DNA of 63,983 nucleotides, the filler included, from Theionarchaea archaeon (GTDB lineage: Archaea > Methanobacteriota_B > Thermococci > Methanofastidiosales > SZ-28-30), in NCBI GenBank assembly GCA_018992565.1. It is 5 parts of 5 records of this genome, joined end to end, with 100 filler letters (N's around TTAATTAATTAA, not from the genome) between each part and the next. Parts side by side here need not be neighbours in the genome. Positions count along the whole stretch, not along the records: positions 48,619 to 56,788 come from JACVGW010000101.1; 4 more parts are not named here. One strand, 5' to 3'. Position numbers and translations under genes: made by a program. Every line of letters begins with the position of its first letter. The first letter of the stretch is position 1. The notes beneath the pieces are model-generated. The model was not told the DNA's origin, ran no database searches, and saw only the letters and a program-made list of their open reading frames with translations. This document shows, piece by piece, positions 8,513-61,615 of this stretch.

Positions 8513-8612
8513 NNNNNNNNNNNNNNNNNNNNNNNNNNNNNNNNNNNNNNNNNNNNTTAATTAATTAANNNNNNNNNNNNNNNNNNNNNNNNNNNNNNNN
8601 NNNNNNNNNNNN
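8513..8612. other. Assembly gap with TTAATTAATTAA linker
   Basis: N run with all-frame stop linker at 8557-8568. Confidence 0.97.
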
Positions 8613-18540: not shown

Positions 18541-18640
18541 NNNNNNNNNNNNNNNNNNNNNNNNNNNNNNNNNNNNNNNNNNNNNNNNNNNNNNNNNNNN
18601 NNNNNNNNNNNNNNNNNNNNNNNNNNNNNNNNNNNNNNNN
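18541..18640. other. Assembly gap (100 N)
   Basis: N run. Confidence 0.98.
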
Positions 18641-40195: not shown

Positions 40196-40295
40196 NNNNN
40201 NNNNNNNNNNNNNNNNNNNNNNNNNNNNNNNNNNNNNNNTTAATTAATTAANNNNNNNNNNNNNNNNNNNNNNNNNNNNNNNNNNNNNNNNNNNN
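40196..40295. other. Assembly gap with TTAATTAATTAA linker
   Basis: N run with linker at 40240-40251. Confidence 0.97.
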
Positions 40296-42069: not shown

Positions 42070-42169
42070 NNNNNNNNNNNNNNNNNNNNNNNNNNNNNNN
42101 NNNNNNNNNNNNNNNNNNNNNNNNNNNNNNNNNNNNNNNNNNNNNNNNNNNNNNNNNNNNNNNNNNNNN
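42070..42169. other. Assembly gap (100 N)
   Basis: N run. Confidence 0.98.
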
Positions 42170-48518: not shown

Positions 48519-48618
48519 NNNNNNNNNNNNNNNNNNNNNNNNNNNNNNNNNNNNNNNNNNNNTTAATTAATTAANNNNNNNNNNNNNNNNNNNNNNNNNN
48601 NNNNNNNNNNNNNNNNNN
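48519..48618. other. Assembly gap with TTAATTAATTAA linker
   Basis: N run with linker at 48563-48574. Confidence 0.97.
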
Positions 48619-48674
48619 GGGATTACCTGTATTAGGCCCCAGATTCTAAGATGATGAAGACGGAGGAGAACCCC

Positions 48675-50018
48675 ATGAGTGATATCAGTATAGTCAACGC
48701 CTCGCAAGTGGAGCACGGGCAGGGTGCGATTCCTGTTGGTCCGCTGCTCATCAGTGCTGTCCTCGAAGATCATGGATACAGCACTCGATTCAAGGACTAT
48801 CAAACCTTCCAGGCCCAGAAAAAGCTCAGCTTCAAGACCTTCTATAAATTCATCCAGGGCACGGAAAGCGTCATAGGAATAAGTGCTATTAGCAGCGATC
48901 TCCCTACCACGCTAGGCGCAATCACGCAGCTAAAGGAGGAACATCCAGAGAAAATTGTGATCTTGGGAGGACCCGGTCCAACAGACATTCCCGCAGAGAT
49001 ACTGGAGCACTTCCCGGTGGACATTATTGTGGTAGGTGAGGGCGAAGAGACAATTGTGGAAGTAATGCAGGCCCTTGATAAGAAAGAGAACCTTGAGGGC
49101 ATAGAGGGCATTGCGTACCGGGACAACGATCGCATTGTCATTTCTCCTCGGAGGAAGCGTATCCAAAATCTTGATTCTTTGCCATTCCCCGCTTACGATA
49201 AAATCGAATTCAAAGACTACAACTATTTAGGAGGAGTAATGACAATCAGGGGATGCCCCTACAGATGTACATTCTGCAGCGCTCATTCGGTATGGGAAAG
49301 AGAGATCACTCAGAGAACCGTGGAGAATGTCATAGAAGAGCTCCAGATCCTGAAAGAAAAGAGAGTCAGGAACATGTTCATCTATGATGACACCTTTGTA
49401 ATAGATTCACAGCGAGTCAAGAGGTTTGCTGAGCAATTTCACCAAGAATCAATTGATATTCCGTGGACCTGCTACGGAAGAATCAACCTCATGACGTCAG
49501 AGCTGCTGGAAATCATGGGGAAGAATGGGTGTAAAGAGATACTGTATGGAATTGAATCTGGTTCAAATAATGTTTTGAAGAGAGTGAACAAAAAATTCAC
49601 TATTGAAGAAGCATCAAGGATTGTGGAGAAGACAACACAGTACACAGATGTTGAAACGTCATATATCTGGGGATACCCCTTTGAAACTCTCGAAGATTTC
49701 TACGACACACTGATGGTAGTTTTCCACCAGACACACCTCCCTCGTGTAAGGCCACGGCTTGCTCTGCTTTCGCCTTTGCCAAAATCCGCTATTTTCTTGG
49801 AATATAGGGCCCAGATTGCATTTCCTGACGATCCTGAAATTGCACATCGTCTTGGATTTCTCCTGGGCAGAGAAAAACTCCTTGAATACCCTGAGGTAGT
49901 CGCACTGGTGAAGAGACATCCCGGGCTCTTCCCATCCTTCTATTACTTCTCTCATGATTTGCTAGAGCAGAAGCTGGAGCTATTCAAAACCATGGAGCAG
50001 AACCTATCACGGGCTTGA
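48675..50018 (+). CDS. Cobalamin-dependent (class B) radical SAM enzyme, putative RiPP methyltransferase 3
   Basis: B12-binding Rossmann domain (ILGGPGPT, VVGEGEET); RGCPYRCTFC; GIESGS; GGAGGAG before ATG at 48675. Confidence 0.9.
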   Translation: MSDISIVNASQVEHGQGAIPVGPLLISAVLEDHGYSTRFKDYQTFQAQKKLSFKTFYKFIQGTESVIGISAISSDLPTTLGAITQLKEEHPEKIVILGGPGPTDIPAEILEHFPVDIIVVGEGEETIVEVMQALDKKENLEGIEGIAYRDNDRIVISPRRKRIQNLDSLPFPAYDKIEFKDYNYLGGVMTIRGCPYRCTFCSAHSVWEREITQRTVENVIEELQILKEKRVRNMFIYDDTFVIDSQRVKRFAEQFHQESIDIPWTCYGRINLMTSELLEIMGKNGCKEILYGIESGSNNVLKRVNKKFTIEEASRIVEKTTQYTDVETSYIWGYPFETLEDFYDTLMVVFHQTHLPRVRPRLALLSPLPKSAIFLEYRAQIAFPDDPEIAHRLGFLLGREKLLEYPEVVALVKRHPGLFPSFYYFSHDLLEQKLELFKTMEQNLSRA

Positions 50019-50134
50019 GAGTCCTGACTTCCAGGTCCACCTGGAATCCAGAAATGGATCAGAGATGGCACCAGTGGAATCAACCTAGCTTTCTCTTGAA
50101 ATCCTGCTGCTCTTATCTGATTTCGCCACACATT

Positions 50135-50152
50135 GAAAAAGAAAAAAAAGAA
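50135..50152 (-). terminator. U-tract terminator after MFS gene
   Basis: Plus-strand gaaaaagaaaaaaaagaa reads as a poly-T tract on the minus strand about 15 nt after the stop at 50167. Confidence 0.6.
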
Positions 50153-50166
50153 GTCAGTGACTCCAA

Positions 50167-51414
50167 CTAGAGTTCTCTGATGCCTGGCACGAGAGAGATG
50201 CTGATTCCCCCAATGATCAATGCAGTGCCGGAGATGAGCAGCATGGTAACAACAGATGTCAAATCAATGAGAGTGCCCATGACTGCATATGATAAGGGGA
50301 CCAGGGCCATGGTCATGGTAACATAGACGCCAAAGACTTTGCCACGTTTCTCATTTGGGGTCAGCGTTTGCAGAAGAGTAATAATAACGATCTCTCCAAA
50401 CCCGCTGATGATCCCCTGAATAGCCATGAGAGCCATAGCAAAGTAGAAGTTTATCACCGTGCCAATTCCCAGCAGAGTCACCCCTGCCACAATAGGGAAT
50501 AAGATGAGAATTCTAGATTTATTTTCTATCTTCGGCTTAACAGCAAGAATGAAGGTCGATACCAGAATGCCCAGAGAATCCGCACTAATGAGGAGCCCGT
50601 ACGCCAGATCACCCATATGATAGTACGTTTCAGACAGAATCTTGAACACGATCACCAGGGGTGCTGCAAAGAATGTCATTGCTCCCAGGACTATGATAAT
50701 ACCCAGGATGGGCTTTTTCTCCAGAATGAATCCAAATCCTTCCTTCATATCGGCGAGAACGTGCTTTTCCGGACCTTCACGTCTGACAAGAGGTATTGTA
50801 ATGAAAGACTCAGAGAACGCAGAGAACAGAAATGATATTCCATTGATTATGAAAGCTAAAGGAACTCCGAGGGTTACCACCAGAATGCCTCCGATTGCAG
50901 GTCCTATAACGCCAGAAATCTTTGAAGTGATTCCTATCAGACTATTCGCACGATTTAGCTCCTCTTCAGGGACAATAGTTGGAATAGATGCTCTCAGGGC
51001 AGGATTGAAAAACACCTGAGCTATCGACATGATGACTGTTCCCACGTAGAGAACAGGAAGTGTCAAGGTGTCACTGATGACAAGCCATCCCAAGTACAGG
51101 ACAACGATTCCTCGCACTGCATCCATCCACACAATGAGGTTCTTGCGGCTCCACCTGTCTGCGTAACTTCCTGCTATGGGCCCCAAAAAGACCTGTGGGA
51201 TTACCATCATCATCAAGACAGTTCCTGTTACCGCGGCAGACCCTGTCTCTGCAATGACAAGAGAGACCAGAGCAAGGAGATAGATCCAATCTCCCGCCTG
51301 AGATACCCCCTGTCCTGCCCACAGGAGCAAGAAGTTCTTGTCCCTGAGAATACTGGATTTTTTCTTCTCTTCTGTTCCTTCTTTGTTTGGATTTTCTACT
51401 CCCGTAGAATCCAT
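50167..51414 (-). CDS. MFS exporter (DHA3/MefA-like)
   Basis: NFLLLWAGQGVS..GD, GSYADRWSRK, 12 TM helices, RGKVFG. Confidence 0.9.
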   Translation of the reverse strand: MDSTGVENPNKEGTEEKKKSSILRDKNFLLLWAGQGVSQAGDWIYLLALVSLVIAETGSAAVTGTVLMMMVIPQVFLGPIAGSYADRWSRKNLIVWMDAVRGIVVLYLGWLVISDTLTLPVLYVGTVIMSIAQVFFNPALRASIPTIVPEEELNRANSLIGITSKISGVIGPAIGGILVVTLGVPLAFIINGISFLFSAFSESFITIPLVRREGPEKHVLADMKEGFGFILEKKPILGIIIVLGAMTFFAAPLVIVFKILSETYYHMGDLAYGLLISADSLGILVSTFILAVKPKIENKSRILILFPIVAGVTLLGIGTVINFYFAMALMAIQGIISGFGEIVIITLLQTLTPNEKRGKVFGVYVTMTMALVPLSYAVMGTLIDLTSVVTMLLISGTALIIGGISISLVPGIREL

Positions 51415-51416
51415 GA

Positions 51417-52295
51417 TTACACCTCCTTTGAACTGGCAGGAATTGAGAAAACTCTGCCTCCTCTCGTATACATGGTCATCTCATGAGGAGCATTCCCAGA
51501 TAGATGGAGAGTGAGGGAATCCTGCTCAAAGTCGCGCATTAAAAACATGATACCGTGTGGTACGTCAAATGCCAAAAACCCCTTATGGGTTGCCTGTGAG
51601 ACGTCCAATCCTTCAATGAGAATCCAGTAGGTGGTCTCAATTGCACGTCTGAGATGTATCTCTGTTACAATGTCCAGTGATATGGGGCTGCCTTCCTCCA
51701 CATTGACAATCACATCATCCTGGACTTCAATTGCAGTTGCCAATGTGCGTACATCTGAATCTCCTGTGGTTGGAGACAGAGAAGTAGCTCCTTGAGAACC
51801 GAATCCCTGAAGAAAGGCGAGATAACTGAGAAATGCACTACTATAGTATATGGAAAGTGCGAGAAAGAGCACGTTCAGCAAAATGTTTACCGCAATCCCT
51901 GAAAGTCCACGTCTCAGAAGGAACGTAGCTGAAGAATGGACGGGATGATCCTCTGCTATTTCCGTACGCATATTAAAGAGCAACAGGGGGTTATGGTAAT
52001 TATACAAGAGCTGTGTTTTTGTCTTGCATCCCATGGATCGTAAGACAACAACATGTCCCATCTCATGCAGAAAGGCTGCCAGAAAAAGACCACCATATGT
52101 CACTGGGATCACCAGCAATAACCTAGAGAGAGACGGTGTTGAAAAGGAGGAGACGATCTGAAATAGCATAACGCTCAAGGGTATTCCCATGAGGAGGACA
52201 CCTGTTGCTTTGCCGTATACAGGATGCGAGAGAAAAGAAGCTATTAAAATCATTACTCTAATGTGGAAAGGATACTTCCCGGCGGTGTAGTTCAT
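51417..52295 (-). CDS. Membrane zinc metallopeptidase-like protein (M50/site-2-protease-like) with C-terminal soluble domain
   Basis: LHEMGH after a TM helix; SGIAVN where M50 has 'AGP..N'; downstream P...DSD. Confidence 0.65.
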   Translation of the reverse strand: MNYTAGKYPFHIRVMILIASFLSHPVYGKATGVLLMGIPLSVMLFQIVSSFSTPSLSRLLLVIPVTYGGLFLAAFLHEMGHVVVLRSMGCKTKTQLLYNYHNPLLLFNMRTEIAEDHPVHSSATFLLRRGLSGIAVNILLNVLFLALSIYYSSAFLSYLAFLQGFGSQGATSLSPTTGDSDVRTLATAIEVQDDVIVNVEEGSPISLDIVTEIHLRRAIETTYWILIEGLDVSQATHKGFLAFDVPHGIMFLMRDFEQDSLTLHLSGNAPHEMTMYTRGGRVFSIPASSKEV

Positions 52296-53692
52296 TCCTC
52301 TGATCCCCCTTTTCCCTCAAAGTTCTGCTTCTTCTCCAGAAGTTCTTTCTCACTTTCAACCTCCCAGATTTTCCAGTCTATTTTTGAAATTGTCTCCAAT
52401 TTCTGTCTGAACTCCGGGTGATCATAGTAGTAGAAACTTGAAAAAACCTGCGGATATTCCTTGATCATTTCAGTGACATGAGGATAGCTCTTCAAAGACT
52501 GTTTAATTGGCAACCCCCCTGCTCTGGATTGAATTGAGGGGTCAAACCGTATGAGGTGGCTGTACTCCTGGAAAATAGGTGAACTGGGCAATGGAGAGAG
52601 AAGTGACATCTGGGTTACTGCTTTCTTCAGGCGAATGTCTTCTCCCATGGACATCAGGGTATCATAGAACTCTTCGAGTGACGAAAATGGAAATCCCCAG
52701 ATATATGAAGTCCGCACTCGTTCAAAATCGTAGGTCACTGTCTTCCGTATGACCTCCCGTGCCTGTTCTATAGTATGCCCTTTATGCAGTTTCTGGAGTA
52801 CTCTATTTGATCCCGACTCAACACCATAAAAGAGCTGGAAACATCCTGTTTCAGAGAGCTTGGTTAAGAGCTCATCATCCATTAACGTTATTTTTCCATT
52901 GCATGTATACGGAAGATCCACTCCTTCGCCACGGATTGCATCTATAATATCCATGGCACGGGATTTCTGTATGACAAATGTGTCATCAAGGAATCCAAGC
53001 ATGATGGAATCATCTGCCACCTGGAGGACTTCTTCAACAATATTCTCCACTGACCTGTACTCCATGTGACGCTGCCAGATTGAATGCGCACTGCAGAACC
53101 CACAGTCATAGGGGCACCCACGGGCGCTCATGATGCAAGCAAGCCGCTGATAGTCAGCAAAATTGACGTGATGATATGCAGGGAAAGGGAGTGAATCCAG
53201 GTCCTTGATTCTCTCTCGTGGTGGAGTAGTTATGACCTTGCCATTGTCTCTGTATACGATACCCTTAACCGTGTCCAGGGGAGTTCCCTCCTGCAGGGCT
53301 TCCATCAATTCTACAGTTGTGTATTCACCTTCTCCCATCACGATAACGTCCACGGGATACTCCTCCAAGATGCTCCCTCCTACATCCGTTGGAGCAGGTC
53401 CTCCCAGAATCACCAGCGTATCCGGGTGTTCTTCCTTCAGCTTCACCACAGCCCCAAGAACTGTGGGAAGCGCATTGCAGATGACGCTGATTCCCACGAT
53501 GTCTGAGGTGGGGTTCATGAAGGAATAGAATTCATTGGGGTCAGGGTGGCGTGTGGGGTCATGGAGCTGATAGTCTCTAAAATCCACCGAAAACCCCTTC
53601 TCTTCCAGAATGGAGACTATTCTCAGGGGTCCAATAGGAAGACCTGGCCGATATTCACCAAATCCAGAGTTTAAAATTAATATATCACTCAT
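52292..53692 (-). CDS. Cobalamin-dependent radical SAM enzyme, putative RiPP methyltransferase 2
   Basis: ILGGPAPT, VMGEGEYT, RGCPYDCGFC, GVESGS. Confidence 0.9.
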   Translation of the reverse strand: MSDILILNSGFGEYRPGLPIGPLRIVSILEEKGFSVDFRDYQLHDPTRHPDPNEFYSFMNPTSDIVGISVICNALPTVLGAVVKLKEEHPDTLVILGGPAPTDVGGSILEEYPVDVIVMGEGEYTTVELMEALQEGTPLDTVKGIVYRDNGKVITTPPRERIKDLDSLPFPAYHHVNFADYQRLACIMSARGCPYDCGFCSAHSIWQRHMEYRSVENIVEEVLQVADDSIMLGFLDDTFVIQKSRAMDIIDAIRGEGVDLPYTCNGKITLMDDELLTKLSETGCFQLFYGVESGSNRVLQKLHKGHTIEQAREVIRKTVTYDFERVRTSYIWGFPFSSLEEFYDTLMSMGEDIRLKKAVTQMSLLSPLPSSPIFQEYSHLIRFDPSIQSRAGGLPIKQSLKSYPHVTEMIKEYPQVFSSFYYYDHPEFRQKLETISKIDWKIWEVESEKELLEKKQNFEGKGGSEE

Positions 53693-55026
53693 GAAGATCC
53701 CTCCTTCTTCTCTCTTTCCCTTATTTTATCAATCATTTTGCATTTTTCCTCAAATCCTTCATTCTCATAGTAGTAGAATGAGCTGAAAACGTCTGGATTT
53801 CTCCTCACCAGATCTTCCAGTTCAGGGTAACCTCTCAGTCTTTCAGGAGGAGGCAGTGTAGAGCCATTATATGTATTGTCCAGCATGAACTTGAGTGTAT
53901 GAGAATACTCACTGTACAGTGTTGTGGACTGAAATGGCGTCACCAGCGTCATTACCGGCTGGACTCCTGACATCTGGACATCTTCCATCTGAAACATCAC
54001 AGTATCATAGAAATCATCCAGAGACTCTCCAGGAAATCCCCACATATATGATGTGTAAACTCGATCGAAATGTTGATTCGCCCTTACAATGTCCTGTCTC
54101 GCCTCTTCTGGCTTGAATTCTTTCCGTATCTTCTTAAGGATAGAACTAGACCCTGATTCTATTCCCAGAAAGAGAGTATCACACCCGGCATGACTCATGG
54201 ATTCCATGAGCGAGTCCGGCAACATACCGACTCTGCCAGTACAGGACCAGTTCTTATCAATGCCTTCTTTCTTGAGGCTCTCGCAGAATTCCACCACCCG
54301 TTCTTTTTCTAGAACGAAGGTGTCATCAGACAAATTGATCCTGTCAATCTTATCCTCGATTTGCAGCAATTCATCTATAACATTCTCAACAGAGCGTAAC
54401 GTCTTTCTGCTCTTCCAGATGGACTTGACACAGAACGTACACTGGAATGGACAACCCCGGGCAGTAATGACATTTGCCTCTTTCCTGTATTCTCCAAAAT
54501 CGATATGATGATAGGCTGGAAAAGGCACAGAATCCAGATCGACAATTCGCTGCCGCTCCGGTGTGGTCACAATGTTGCCGTTGTCTCTATAGCAGATACC
54601 ATTCACAGAGCTGAGGGAATCTCCCCTGTCAAGAGCCTCCATGATCTCCACAATAGTCCTTTCACCTTCACCCACAACTGCTATATCAACCGCGGAGAGT
54701 TCCAGAAGGCGTTCAGTACTCACCGAGGCAGCTGGTCCTCCAAGTATGACAGTAACATCATGGCTCTCTTTCAGAAGACTCACAGCCTTCAGTACGGAAG
54801 GTAGTGCATTGCAAAAGACACTGATACCCAGAACAGGCGCAGAAGATTCCATGAAATGTGAGAGCACTTCCGGATCTGCCTTTCTTTTCACATCTTCGTT
54901 CTGATAGTCTGTAAATTCAACGGAATACCCGGCTTCTTCCAGAGACGCTGCAATGTACAGGAGGCCAATGCCCAACTGCCCTCTGCCTGCACCAATCACT
55001 GAATTCATCAGAGTAATATCTGTCAT
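53689..55026 (-). CDS. Cobalamin-dependent radical SAM enzyme, putative RiPP methyltransferase 1
   Basis: ILGGPAAS, VVGEGERT, RGCPFQCTFC, GIESGS; likely start MTDITL at 55026 (ORF track gives 55047). Confidence 0.9.
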   Translation of the reverse strand: MTDITLMNSVIGAGRGQLGIGLLYIAASLEEAGYSVEFTDYQNEDVKRKADPEVLSHFMESSAPVLGISVFCNALPSVLKAVSLLKESHDVTVILGGPAASVSTERLLELSAVDIAVVGEGERTIVEIMEALDRGDSLSSVNGICYRDNGNIVTTPERQRIVDLDSVPFPAYHHIDFGEYRKEANVITARGCPFQCTFCVKSIWKSRKTLRSVENVIDELLQIEDKIDRINLSDDTFVLEKERVVEFCESLKKEGIDKNWSCTGRVGMLPDSLMESMSHAGCDTLFLGIESGSSSILKKIRKEFKPEEARQDIVRANQHFDRVYTSYMWGFPGESLDDFYDTVMFQMEDVQMSGVQPVMTLVTPFQSTTLYSEYSHTLKFMLDNTYNGSTLPPPERLRGYPELEDLVRRNPDVFSSFYYYENEGFEEKCKMIDKIREREKKEGSS

Positions 55027-55047
55027 TCCTATCTCCTCTTTCTTCAC

Positions 55048-55323
55048 TCAGACCGTCACAAGACTCTTGTTTTTCAAGTCCTCAATCAATTCTATGGTGT
55101 CAGCCAGGACTTCATCAAACGAGGGAGCACCCTCAATCGTGGTGTGAATCTCCTGCGCAATCTCTCTGATGGTGCGATCACCAGTGCACTGGTTCCATAT
55201 TTCGCGTCCCACTTCGTTAACCACAAAATACTGGGCAGTCATCACGTTGAAGAGGGCCAGATCATCCCCCTGTTCACGTGGCCGGACATGTGCAACTCTT
55301 TTTGGTTTGGCTGTATCTTCCAT
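55048..55323 (-). CDS. Stand-alone PqqD-family RiPP recognition element (RRE)
   Basis: 91 aa; 'YFVVNEVGREIWNQCTGDRTIREIAQEI...DTIELIEDLKNKSLV' fits the PqqD pattern N..G..IW...dG..T..EI...L....L. Confidence 0.9.
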   Translation of the reverse strand: MEDTAKPKRVAHVRPREQGDDLALFNVMTAQYFVVNEVGREIWNQCTGDRTIREIAQEIHTTIEGAPSFDEVLADTIELIEDLKNKSLVTV

Positions 55324-55328
55324 TCATT

Positions 55329-56435
55329 TCACCTCATACACTCTATTTCCTCACAGATTCTCCCGACAGGATAGTCTTCACAAATCTCTGCGTATTCCTT
55401 CCCTGGATCCATGGCCGCTATGGGACATGGCACACATTCCTTGGGGAAAAAATCACATTCGTCACACCTGGGGAGATATTCTGCTATCACATTTGGAGAC
55501 TGCATATAAAACAATCGTTCAAAATCCTCAGAACATAAAATATCGACAATTCCATTCTCCAGGAGACTGCTGCCACGACTGACATATACATCATGATTCT
55601 TGAGGGTGAGGTCCGGGAGAGCACCTTTACAAGGAAAAGCAGTCCCGTCAGCACGGATGAAGATGGTTGACGTGGTCGCCCCACATTTCTTTGGTTCTAT
55701 TGGCAGGTGGATGCCATACTTCTCATTCAAATATTCAATCAAAGGGGGCATGGCAAATAACATAGTGACAAATTCACAATTCATATCAAGTTCAAGAAGG
55801 GTCTCAATAACAGTTTCAGCAAGATGGATGAATTCCAGAGGAGAAAGGATGACACTCCGTTCCATGGTAGCTGCATTTCCCTGATATGACAGCATCTCCA
55901 AAATGACACGAGTGAAATTCATGTCCTTTGCCATTTTGATAAGTGTAGTAACCTCATGAACATTCATTTTGGAAACAACCACATCCATCACCAGTGAATC
56001 CAGAGAATGCGTGGCCACAGCTGAGACATTTCCCACTACCTTGTCGAAATTACTTCCCCTGCGAATGTATGAATAGGTCTCTCTAGAAGCTCCATCAATA
56101 CTCACTGCAACGCCCTTGAGCCCTGCCTCAATAAGAGACTCCAGCAACTCCTCAGTGAGAAGGAGTCCATTCGTGATAATAAACGGGGCTGAATTCCTGT
56201 TCTTTACCTGCCTTACTATCTGTGGAAGGTCTTTCCGAAGCAGCGGTTCGCCTCCGAACATTCCCACATTCGCGATTGGTAGAATACACAGGTTTTCCAG
56301 AACACACATCATGTTCTCTGTGGACAGCTCTGTTTGGTTTCCTCTATACAGAGACGTTGCATAACAATGCCTACAATTAAGGTTACAACGTGGAGTGACA
56401 TCCCAGTCTACAAAGCTCAATCCACCTTTGGCCAT
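55329..56435 (-). CDS. Radical SAM/SPASM-domain peptide maturase
   Basis: CNLNCRHC, GGEPLLR, TNG, VSIDG; SPASM cysteines CGA...IRADG..FPC and CDEC......CVPC plus distal Cys. Confidence 0.9.
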   Translation of the reverse strand: MAKGGLSFVDWDVTPRCNLNCRHCYATSLYRGNQTELSTENMMCVLENLCILPIANVGMFGGEPLLRKDLPQIVRQVKNRNSAPFIITNGLLLTEELLESLIEAGLKGVAVSIDGASRETYSYIRRGSNFDKVVGNVSAVATHSLDSLVMDVVVSKMNVHEVTTLIKMAKDMNFTRVILEMLSYQGNAATMERSVILSPLEFIHLAETVIETLLELDMNCEFVTMLFAMPPLIEYLNEKYGIHLPIEPKKCGATTSTIFIRADGTAFPCKGALPDLTLKNHDVYVSRGSSLLENGIVDILCSEDFERLFYMQSPNVIAEYLPRCDECDFFPKECVPCPIAAMDPGKEYAEICEDYPVGRICEEIECMR

Positions 56436-56514
56436 TACATCACTTTCTTTCGCTTTCTAATCCGTATCTTTGGCGTTCAAAGAATCCTTTGTCAGTGAAT
56501 ACTTCTCTTTGCAT

Positions 56515-56540
56515 AAATAAAAAAAATAGAAAGTAAAGAA
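56515..56540 (-). terminator. U-rich terminator/attenuator between precursor and maturase genes
   Basis: Minus strand reads TTCTTTACTTTCTATTTTTTTTATTT about 20-45 nt after the precursor stop. Confidence 0.55.
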
Positions 56541-56557
56541 GTACTACATTGGTTGAT

Positions 56558-56644
56558 CTAGTATGGCACGGCAGGCAGGCTGATGAGCCACTTGTCTGCT
56601 GTAATCCTTACAGTAATTTCTTCTAATCTGGGCTTTGCGTACAT
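56558..56644 (-). CDS. Putative RiPP precursor peptide, 28 aa: MYAKPRLEEITVRITADKWLISLPAVPY (not in ORF track)
   Basis: ATG at 56644 to TAG at 56558; AGGAGGTGA ribosome site 6 nt upstream (56651-56659); YxxPxL leader motif; first gene ahead of the SPASM and RRE genes. Confidence 0.85.
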   Translation of the reverse strand: MYAKPRLEEITVRITADKWLISLPAVPY

Positions 56645-56713
56645 AAGTATTCACCTCCTTTCATTTTGTACTACAGAATCTAAGACTGATTCTGTTGTTA
56701 GAATTACCCTAAA

Positions 56714-56730
56714 GTATTTATAAGCTTTTC
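56714..56730 (-). promoter_or_regulatory. BRE/TATA promoter for precursor and RiPP operon
   Basis: Minus strand GAAAAGCTTATAAATAC about 70 nt upstream of the precursor ATG. Confidence 0.65.
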
Positions 56731-56762
56731 CATTATTTACAGGATTAATCTCCTTTTATATA

Positions 56763-56780
56763 GAAAAAGGTTTATAGATA
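56763..56780 (+). promoter_or_regulatory. Divergent BRE/TATA pointing into the gap
   Basis: GAAAAAGGTTTATAGATA immediately before the contig end. Confidence 0.45.
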
Positions 56781-56788
56781 ATTCAAAG

Positions 56789-56888
56789 NNNNNNNNNNNN
56801 NNNNNNNNNNNNNNNNNNNNNNNNNNNNNNNNTTAATTAATTAANNNNNNNNNNNNNNNNNNNNNNNNNNNNNNNNNNNNNNNNNNNN
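56789..56888. other. Assembly gap with TTAATTAATTAA linker
   Basis: N run with linker at 56833-56844. Confidence 0.97.
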
Positions 56889-61515: not shown

Positions 61516-61615
61516 NNNNNNNNNNNNNNNNNNNNNNNNNNNNNNNNNNNNNNNNNNNNNNNNNNNNNNNNNNNNNNNNNNNNNNNNNNNNNNNNNNNNN
61601 NNNNNNNNNNNNNNN
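61516..61615. other. Assembly gap (100 N)
   Basis: N run. Confidence 0.98.

Follow-up and report, generated by a model that had tools for sequence, protein, structure and literature searches.

The stretch of DNA analysed here (the window; 63,983 nucleotides) comes from the genome of a Theionarchaea archaeon (GCA_018992565.1), and carries on its minus strand, at positions 55329-56435, a gene for a radical S-adenosylmethionine (SAM)/SPASM peptide maturase of 368 amino acids. The gene was recognized from its open reading frame (ORF), Pfam matches, an AlphaFold2 (AF2) model and an alignment of cysteines, and the protein lacks a fused RRE domain, the recognition element of pathways for peptides that ribosomes make and that are modified after translation (RiPPs). 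It belongs to a gene cluster that occupies all of a contig of 8170 bases (C73, JACVGW010000101.1; window positions 48619-56788). The window consists of joined contigs of a metagenome-assembled genome (MAG) of 154 contigs, separated by runs of N (8513-8612, 18541-18640, 40196-40295, 42070-42169, 48519-48618, 56789-56888 and 61516-61615), several of them with the all-frame stop linker TTAATTAATTAA. Because contigs are joined at its two ends, the genes beyond 48619 and 56788 are not neighbours of the cluster.

The maturase contains the radical SAM motif C17-x3-C21-x2-C24, and its match to the Pfam family Radical_SAM (PF04055; E 1.7e-24, 87 bits, cut-off 29.5) places it in the superfamily. The canonical SPASM signature comprises seven cysteines (CX9-15GX4C ... 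CX2CX5CX3C ... C) and two auxiliary clusters. The C-terminal cysteines of the maturase follow the pattern C251-x12-G-x4-C269 ... C324-x2-C327-x6-C334-x2-C337 ... C352, plus C361, the middle block being spaced x6/x2 against x5/x3 in the canonical form. C269, C324, C327, C334, C337, C352 and C361 are invariant in all 17 aligned family members, which is enough for two auxiliary clusters, and C251 is found in 13 of them; outside the radical SAM motif and this set the 17 members have no further conserved cysteine. Judged from the alignment, the SPASM-type cysteine set is real and agrees with the signature despite its slightly unusual spacing, and the close homologues P0001 and P0003 carry a precomputed SPASM domain. 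An initial annotation of the gene had reported both the CxxxCxxC motif and SPASM-type cysteines, and both were recovered here.

The maturase falls outside the curated families. The highest-scoring NCBIfam models were MoaA (109 bits, cut-off 325), a halophile pseudo-SAM family, PqqE (TIGR02109; 101 against 381.35, aligned to maturase residues 12-278) and NirJ (98 against 515), with scores 3- to 7-fold below the cut-offs. AhbC (92 against 650), AhbD (91 against 500), MftC (TIGR03962; 79 against 265), StsB (78 against 625) and WgkB (77 against 650) scored lower, and no family member and no near outgroup reached the cut-off of any NCBIfam model. A search of the ESM Atlas returned generic radical SAM clusters only. 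The missed cut-offs of MoaA, NirJ, AhbC and AhbD indicate, as far as sequence models can tell, that the maturase is not a cofactor enzyme. The earlier proposal of a peptide maturase gained support from these scores, far below the curated limits, and from the conservation of a peptide beside the enzyme.

This peptide, MYAKPRLEEITVRITADKWLISLPAVPY, is encoded by an ORF of 28 codons (56558-56644, minus strand) located 122 nt upstream of the maturase gene; it was identified as a precursor from the ORF itself and from homologues beside the enzyme in related loci. Its core reads K18-W-L-I-S22, followed by S22-L-P-A-V and a C-terminal V-P-Y. The closest locus available for comparison, L001, lies in another MAG titled Theionarchaea and encodes a maturase 82% identical to that of the window. 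A Shine-Dalgarno-like GGAGGTG 7 nt ahead of the precursor ATG (56652-56658, minus strand), read from the sequence, is kept in L001. Further upstream, GGAAAAGCTTATAAATAC (56714-56731, minus strand) is a candidate archaeal BRE/TATA-like promoter element, because it is identical in the window and L001 amid diverging intergenic DNA. Past the precursor stop a T-rich tract (56515-56540, minus strand), conserved between the two loci, may serve as an archaeal oligo-T terminator or attenuator. The two precursor genes differ by about 10 synonymous and 2 non-synonymous changes, counted from the alignment. The alignments thus argue that the precursor ORF is under purifying selection and goes beyond a chance ORF, since it adjoins the enzyme in every homologous locus examined, its changes are mostly synonymous and profile matches to it are rare. 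Between the precursor and the enzyme genes there is another ORF, of 24 amino acids (56440-56514, minus strand). This stretch is poorly conserved and differs from L001 by a 7-nt indel, so the ORF is probably not a second precursor.

A homologous small ORF heads each related cluster: it stands just upstream of the enzyme gene in L001, L002 and L016, and precedes the PqqD gene in L003-L006. The precursor profile found only six matches among 1.84 billion proteins (representatives at 50%). Five were peptides of 27-51 amino acids, three of them new (P0123, P0125 and P0126). The sixth, P0124, a repeat protein of 1721 amino acids, was set aside. Its repeats resemble the leader segment K-P-x-L-x-E-I-x-V, and it matches profile positions 3-15 in 12 separate stretches (E 9.7e-10). 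An NCBIfam scan of seven precursors at E ≤ 10 matched no family; the PqqA model had no match in the source genome nor in 14 control genomes, and is uninformative on likeness to PqqA.

Eight distinct precursors were compared, P0123, P0125 and P0126 among them being known from the profile alone. The peptides that travel with the cluster have 27-32 residues. Y2, P5, D17, K18 and S22 are invariant in all eight, and hydrophobic residues alternate at positions 10, 12 and 14. Position 19 is Trp in five precursors and Ile or Leu in the other three, and the core of P0125 has no aromatic residue. The tail after S22 is 4-7 residues long, hypervariable and unrelated in sequence among the eight. It ends in Tyr only in the window and L001 peptides, which belong to one genus; the remaining ones finish with D, K, Q, N or C, T and A. 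Cys occurs in three of the eight at non-conserved places: in L002 at position 13, and both in the L005 type and in P0126 at position 26 or 27. Two of the three Trp-less precursors have a tail Cys and none of the five Trp precursors has one; with eight sequences this is only a hint that a tail Cys could be an alternative acceptor where W19 is missing.

Five closely packed genes follow the maturase gene on the minus strand (spacing -4 to +5 nt). The first, which starts 5 nt past the maturase stop, encodes a discrete PqqD-family peptide chaperone (RRE) of 91 amino acids (55048-55323; Pfam PqqD, E 1.8e-11). It is followed without a gap by B12-binding radical SAM enzyme 1, a presumed C-methyltransferase (53689-55047; Pfam B12-binding and Radical_SAM), whose nearest counterparts in L002 and L016 are 38-39% identical. 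B12-binding radical SAM enzyme 2 (52292-53692; Pfam/NCBIfam) overlaps its neighbours, enzyme 1 included, by 4 nt. At the other end of the cluster a divergent B12-binding radical SAM enzyme 3 is encoded on the plus strand (48651-50018; Pfam/NCBIfam), with a counterpart of 80% identity at the same place in L001. None of the B12 enzymes reached an NCBIfam cut-off. Their best model was ApyD, at 167-172 bits against 750 (167 for enzyme 1); the reported product of ApyD is beta-methyl-Tyr (PMC11117315).

The remaining two genes encode membrane proteins. A membrane metalloprotease of 292 amino acids with an HEMGH motif (51417-52295, minus strand), presumed to be the leader peptidase, resembles site-2 proteases (S2P) in its invariant residues and AF2 fold. 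H77, E78, H81 and D181 are invariant in all nine sequences, and the AF2 model (mean predicted local distance difference test, pLDDT, 82.5) has a C-terminal beta-sandwich domain. Over residues 55-192 the model matched RseP (Z 9.5), SpoIVFB (Z 9.2) and the Methanocaldococcus jannaschii S2P (Z 7.9). Because these values are modest, we call the protein site-2-protease-like and not a proven M50 member; it scores 20 bits with the Pfam M50 model PF02163, below the cut-off of 27.2, and matched no NCBIfam family. The last gene of the series encodes a major facilitator superfamily (MFS) efflux transporter, the presumed exporter (50167-51414, minus strand; Pfam MFS_1, E 1.3e-40; TIGR00900, 237 bits against a cut-off of 319.6).

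The maturase family is small. Among 5.8 billion proteins searched, 15 rows had E ≤ 5e-68 (33-100% identity), the next match having E 3e-40. As P0002, one of the 15, is a shorter reading of the window's own product, there are 14 other clusters (at 90% identity); one member is labelled Candidatus Methanofastidiosia archaeon at source. Seven other loci were examined, representing four independent lineages besides the window: L001; L002, in a Clostridia MAG (maturase 34% identical); L003-L006, four near-identical contigs of one high-GC metagenome lineage (43% identical); and L016, in genome G287, which belongs to the same taxonomic order as the L002 MAG (maturase 31% identical). All seven contain the SPASM gene, two or more B12-binding radical SAM genes and the genes for the S2P-like protease and the MFS transporter. 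The B12-binding radical SAM genes number three in the window and in L001, two in L002 and L016, and five in L003-L006. ORF reading also revealed a PqqD gene in every one of these loci, combined with tblastn for L001, L003-L006 and L016 and with an alignment for L002. The SPASM maturase, PqqD, two or more B12-binding radical SAM enzymes, the S2P-like protease and the MFS exporter thus travel with the peptide across archaea and bacteria. An additional protein of 584 amino acids, encoded about 6 kb upstream of the cluster in L001 (26-1780), is 27% identical to B12 enzyme 2 of the window and looks like a RiPP C-methyltransferase with a C-terminal extension.

Within the taxonomic class of the window, 4 of the 133 genomes match the maturase at E ≤ 1e-40, and a full orthologue is present only in the source genome and in G032, of the same genus. 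In G033 a contig breaks off within the gene, leaving a fragment (49% identity over 105 amino acids). Matches at G131, G032:C3 and G033:C98 were left out of the family as other SPASM paralogues (26-36% identical). In the order of the Clostridia member 2 of the 401 sampled genomes match.

With the gene set in view, it is extremely improbable that the maturase works in cofactor or lipid metabolism and that the small ORF beside it is fortuitous. The identity of the top NCBIfam models (MoaA, the halophile pseudo-SAM family, PqqE and NirJ) is what speaks for it. The severalfold deficit of those scores speaks against it, as do the joint retention of peptide, PqqD and enzyme by five lineages, which represent two domains of life, the apparent purifying selection on the precursor, and a model of the complex (below) which passes its controls.

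The AF2 model of the maturase has high confidence (pLDDT 93.8) and aligns with SuiB, anSME, ChlB and PqqE over residues 1-362/368, including the SPASM region of SuiB and anSME. The top fold match was SuiB (Z 28.9, root-mean-square deviation 3.2, 318 residues aligned, 14% identity), followed by SkfB (Z 25.9), anSME (25.6, residues 4-367), ChlB (24.7, residues 4-368) and PqqE (24.0), then BlsE (23.6), CteB (23.2), TigE (20.9) and EpeE (17.9). A sequence profile run against the proteins of the PDB gave another order: GDGT-MAS (101 bits), PqqE and MoaA (81 each), SkfB (78), TigE (54; E 1.3e-13) and CteB (51), with lower scores for SuiB (40), ChlB (28; E 1e-5), EpeE/YydG (25; E 6e-5) and anSME (21; E 1e-3). 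GDGT-MAS was the best sequence match in the PDB both with the single protein (E 1.6e-17) and with the profile (E 4.5e-28), over residues 8-269 only. The fold comparison places the maturase among full-SPASM enzymes that perform two-electron oxidations of peptides, and further from the epimerase with one auxiliary cluster.

This placement bears on the possibility that the maturase is a peptide epimerase making D-residues, a mass-neutral reaction which, combined with B12-dependent C-methylation, would give a small proteusin-like or epipeptide-like product. We regard it as unlikely. Several B12-binding radical SAM methylases next to a radical epimerase would recall the logic of polytheonamide biosynthesis, the precursor core is aliphatic, and EpeE/YydG is detectable by fold and by profile. 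On the other side, the fold score of EpeE is well below those of the oxidizing SPASM enzymes (17.9 against 24-29), the family keeps the full cysteine set for two auxiliary clusters, and there is no conserved Cys to return a hydrogen beyond the 7-8 presumed ligands; C352 or C361 could be free, so the last point is not decisive.

The matches to GDGT-MAS and TigE raise the question of aliphatic C-C chemistry on hydrophobic residues, either a cyclopropane of the TvgB/TigE type or an sp3-sp3 link such as the archaeal lipid enzyme GDGT-MAS makes. Ile, Leu and Val abound in the core, which in P0125 is free of aromatic residues, and this would suit such a reaction. It is nevertheless improbable, because the precursors lack repeats of the TVGG or TIGSVS type, TigE ranks below SuiB, anSME and PqqE by fold, and the partial GDGT-MAS match may reflect the shared core.

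There is a similarly small probability that S22 is dehydrogenated to an aldehyde (formylglycine) as by anSME, with or without later imine formation to K18. Both residues are invariant, anSME is among the top folds, and S-L-P in the window peptide resembles the start of the sulfatase motif S/C-x-P/A-x-R. Against this, S-x is followed by P, K, A, H, S or N depending on the member, no Arg comes after it, and by profile anSME is weak.

The association of maturase, PqqD and precursor was modelled with the L001 proteins, which are 82-93% identical to those of the window, using the 31-amino-acid GTG reading of the L001 peptide and including SAM. The model was built on its own shallow alignments and, unlike the calibration, contained a small molecule. 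The complex scored 0.82 and the best of three controls 0.53; in the calibration 116 of 157 solved complexes attained the score mark, as did 2 of 215 mismatched pairs. Contact agreement between the runs was at least 78%, and the pLDDT of the partners at least 59. The tightest pairs join PqqD residues 31-39 to precursor residues 4-10 (28-residue numbering). In the model, residues 4-10 of the precursor (K-P-x-L-x-E-I) are thus predicted to dock on PqqD as an added beta-strand. The maturase residues that touch the peptide belong to the barrel strands and confident contacts stop at peptide residue 21, so that the conserved stretch up to this residue, W19 included, is modelled inside the maturase barrel. 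Residues 22-28 received no confident placement. Conservation of the maturase interface residues, compared between W-type and I/L-type clades, showed no clear specificity pattern.

These results discriminate between the two target sites proposed in the initial annotation, W19 and the terminal V-P-Y. W19 lies within the stretch modelled in the barrel; it is replaced by Ile or Leu in three of eight precursors, so it survives as a possible acceptor in the window subtype only. As three of the precursors have no Trp, and one has no aromatic core residue, an arene cross-link is not the chemistry of the whole family. The V-P-Y end fared worse, its Tyr being last in two of eight peptides and the hypervariable tail not being confidently modelled. 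C-terminal Tyr chemistry is unlikely, and a specific version of it, an oxidative decarboxylation or cross-link at V-P-Y like that of MftC or a PqqE-like bond to Tyr, is very improbable. It would account for the last residue of the window peptide, the mycofactocin maturase model gives a weak match, and PQQ and mycofactocin systems likewise use a discrete PqqD partner. The tails, which end differently and vary in length outside one genus, the score of that model (79 bits, where 265 are required), and the unplaced residues 22-28 count against it. Invariant D17, K18 and S22 had been overlooked as targets. The statement that no known motif was matched exactly still holds, as no known substrate motif or curated family fits; and with MYAKPRLEEITVRITADKWLISLPAVPY free of Cys, thioether formation is excluded for the window peptide, as had been argued.

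On balance, we favour the view that the gene encodes a radical SAM/SPASM maturase of a rare RiPP pathway outside the curated families, acting near the invariant D17-K18...S22. The assignment to the D-K-x-x-x-S centre follows from the invariance of these residues and from the modelled position of the stretch up to residue 21 in the barrel.

Several points weigh against this view. The Pfam SPASM model (PF13186) scores 19.8 bits with the window maturase, just below the gathering cut-off of 21.5. The nearest relative differs by method, being GDGT-MAS and then PqqE by profile and SuiB by fold; with the two in disagreement, neither assigns the chemistry. PqqD and the leader account for much of the signal in the complex model, since a control in which the enzyme was replaced retained a score of 0.53. 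Solved look-alikes of the complex exist (SuiB-SuiA and the ChlB-ChlA leader), and the good score may reflect memory. Small molecules were not scored, so no residue can be named as facing SAM. P0123, P0125 and P0126 belong to the family by profile match alone. D17, K18 and S22 could instead be determinants of recognition or cleavage. The reaction type itself, whether cross-link, oxidation or epimerization, is a matter of pure inference and beyond computation.

If the maturase does act at the D-K-x-x-x-S centre, an sp3 carbon of the invariant D17-K18, or of a residue beside them, would lose a hydrogen to the 5'-deoxyadenosyl radical, and the two auxiliary clusters would accept the second electron. 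A new intramolecular bond could then form to a nearby acceptor, in the window peptide the indole of W19 (C-C) or the oxygen of S22 (ether). The arene link may be a local version of the reaction, with Cys as the acceptor in other members. The B12 enzymes would C-methylate aliphatic core residues, probably at the conserved aliphatic positions 19-21 and 23. The membrane protease would release the hydrophobic core by cutting off the leader, and the short lipophilic product would leave the cell through the MFS pump. More tentatively, the product may hold an unprecedented RiPP cross-link, either an ether that joins Ser22 with Lys18 at one of its sp3 carbons (a KxxxS ring) or a reversed Asp/Lys-to-Trp cyclophane, in a short, multiply C-methylated lipophilic peptide. 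This proposal, which includes a thioether variant in the Trp-less members with a tail Cys, is possible and, taken as a whole, rather doubtful.

DNA of the cluster is present in marine sediment, mangrove and soil metagenomes from six studies; 17 of the 20 that carry it are possible sources of it. No RNA run is among them, which has no bearing on expression. No difference in the precursor gene was listed in the public runs that cover it. A single public contig of 13.7 kb is identical to the window over all 8170 bases of the stretch; this contig is possibly where the DNA came from, and so is not independent. Contigs from the public runs X10 (13.7 kb) and X9 (13.5 kb) extend past both ends of C73, so that sequence lying upstream of the precursor is present in public data. 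A 5.3-kb contig of run X1 covers most of the cluster (51419-56767) at a mean word depth of about 929, compared with 23.5 for the other long X1 contig touching the stretch and 20 for the spanning X10 contig; the value of 929 may be an artefact of the depth figures. The source genome has 41 places that match the radical SAM maturase at E ≤ 1e-5. Contigs C119, C110, C28, C140, C133, C49, C4, C24 and C13, all outside the window, carry such matches, and in several cases two or three SPASM-like genes stand in tandem (three each on C119 and C110, for example). These sets suggest that the same archaeon has more peptide-maturase clusters.

Radical SAM/SPASM enzymes are a main source of new peptide cross-links and, to our knowledge, few archaeal RiPP pathways have been studied so far. 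The invariant D-K-x-x-x-S matches no known substrate motif and marks a small family which spans archaea and Firmicutes. The combination of a SPASM enzyme, two to five B12-binding radical SAM enzymes and an intramembrane protease forms a compact system, seven genes and a 28-residue substrate, from which a linkage not seen before, or else another way to polymethylated lipophilic peptides, might emerge. Were the proposed cross-link real, we know of no earlier characterized archaeal radical SAM/SPASM and B12 pathway of this kind, though no search of the literature was aimed at this point; should the chemistry prove to be of a known type, the cluster would be one more orphan RiPP cluster. A full-text literature search found no description of the cluster or the motif; the published 'Bioinformatic Atlas' of radical SAM RiPPs was outside its reach, so a prior listing is possible.

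Among known systems, StrB/SuiB shares with the maturase the radical SAM and full SPASM domains and an RRE-guided peptide substrate, and SuiB gave the best fold match (Z 28.9). The KxxxW spacing of its substrate has an equal in K18...S22, also i, i+4. The identity is only 14% and the profile score 40 bits, and the RRE is a separate PqqD protein here, the maturase itself beginning straight away with its radical SAM core, whereas it is an N-terminal fused domain in StrB/SuiB. The i+4 residue is Ser, not Trp, the sole Trp adjoins the Lys and is missing in three of eight precursors, so the peptides do not conform to KxxxW; here, moreover, the maturase comes with B12 methylases, an MFS pump and a protease of the S2P-like type.

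The PqqE/PqqD/PqqA system has the same architecture, with a radical SAM/SPASM enzyme of about 370 residues, a discrete PqqD and a peptide shorter than 30 residues, and in the profile comparison with the PDB only one match is better than PqqE (81 bits; fold Z 24.0). It differs in that TIGR02109 reaches 101 bits against the required 381.35, the eight precursors have no conserved Glu-x-x-x-Tyr pair, and the cluster has no PqqB, PqqC or PqqF gene. MftC/MftB/MftA has in common with the window a discrete PqqD-type chaperone and a peptide ending in Tyr. The Val-Tyr end of the MftC substrate is not found (P-Y in the window, no final Tyr in six of eight precursors), the MftC model gives 79 bits against 265, and no other mycofactocin genes are present.

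The synthases of three-residue cyclophanes (ChlB, XyeB) are approached by fold (ChlB, Z 24.7) and by the aromatic-x-x triplet W-L-I of the window peptide, but the aromatic residue is missing in three of eight precursors, the ChlB profile match has E 1e-5 only and there are no repeated motifs. Maturases of sactipeptides and ranthipeptides act on substrates with Cys; the window peptide has none, and the StsB model scores 78 bits against 625. For anSME the fold match (Z 25.6) goes with a substrate motif, Ser/Cys-x-Pro/Ala-x-Arg, from which S22-L-P-A-V departs. The bottromycin and proteusin pathways likewise use several B12-binding radical SAM C-methylases on one short peptide; the clusters described above have two to five class-B radical SAM enzymes for one short hydrophobic peptide, and an MFS exporter. 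In place of a YcaO protein, an NHLP leader or a PoyD-type epimerase the present cluster has a SPASM enzyme and PqqD. RRE-dependent radical SAM/SPASM RiPP pathways are a known kind, and the cluster is most likely one of them, leading to a product family not yet described.

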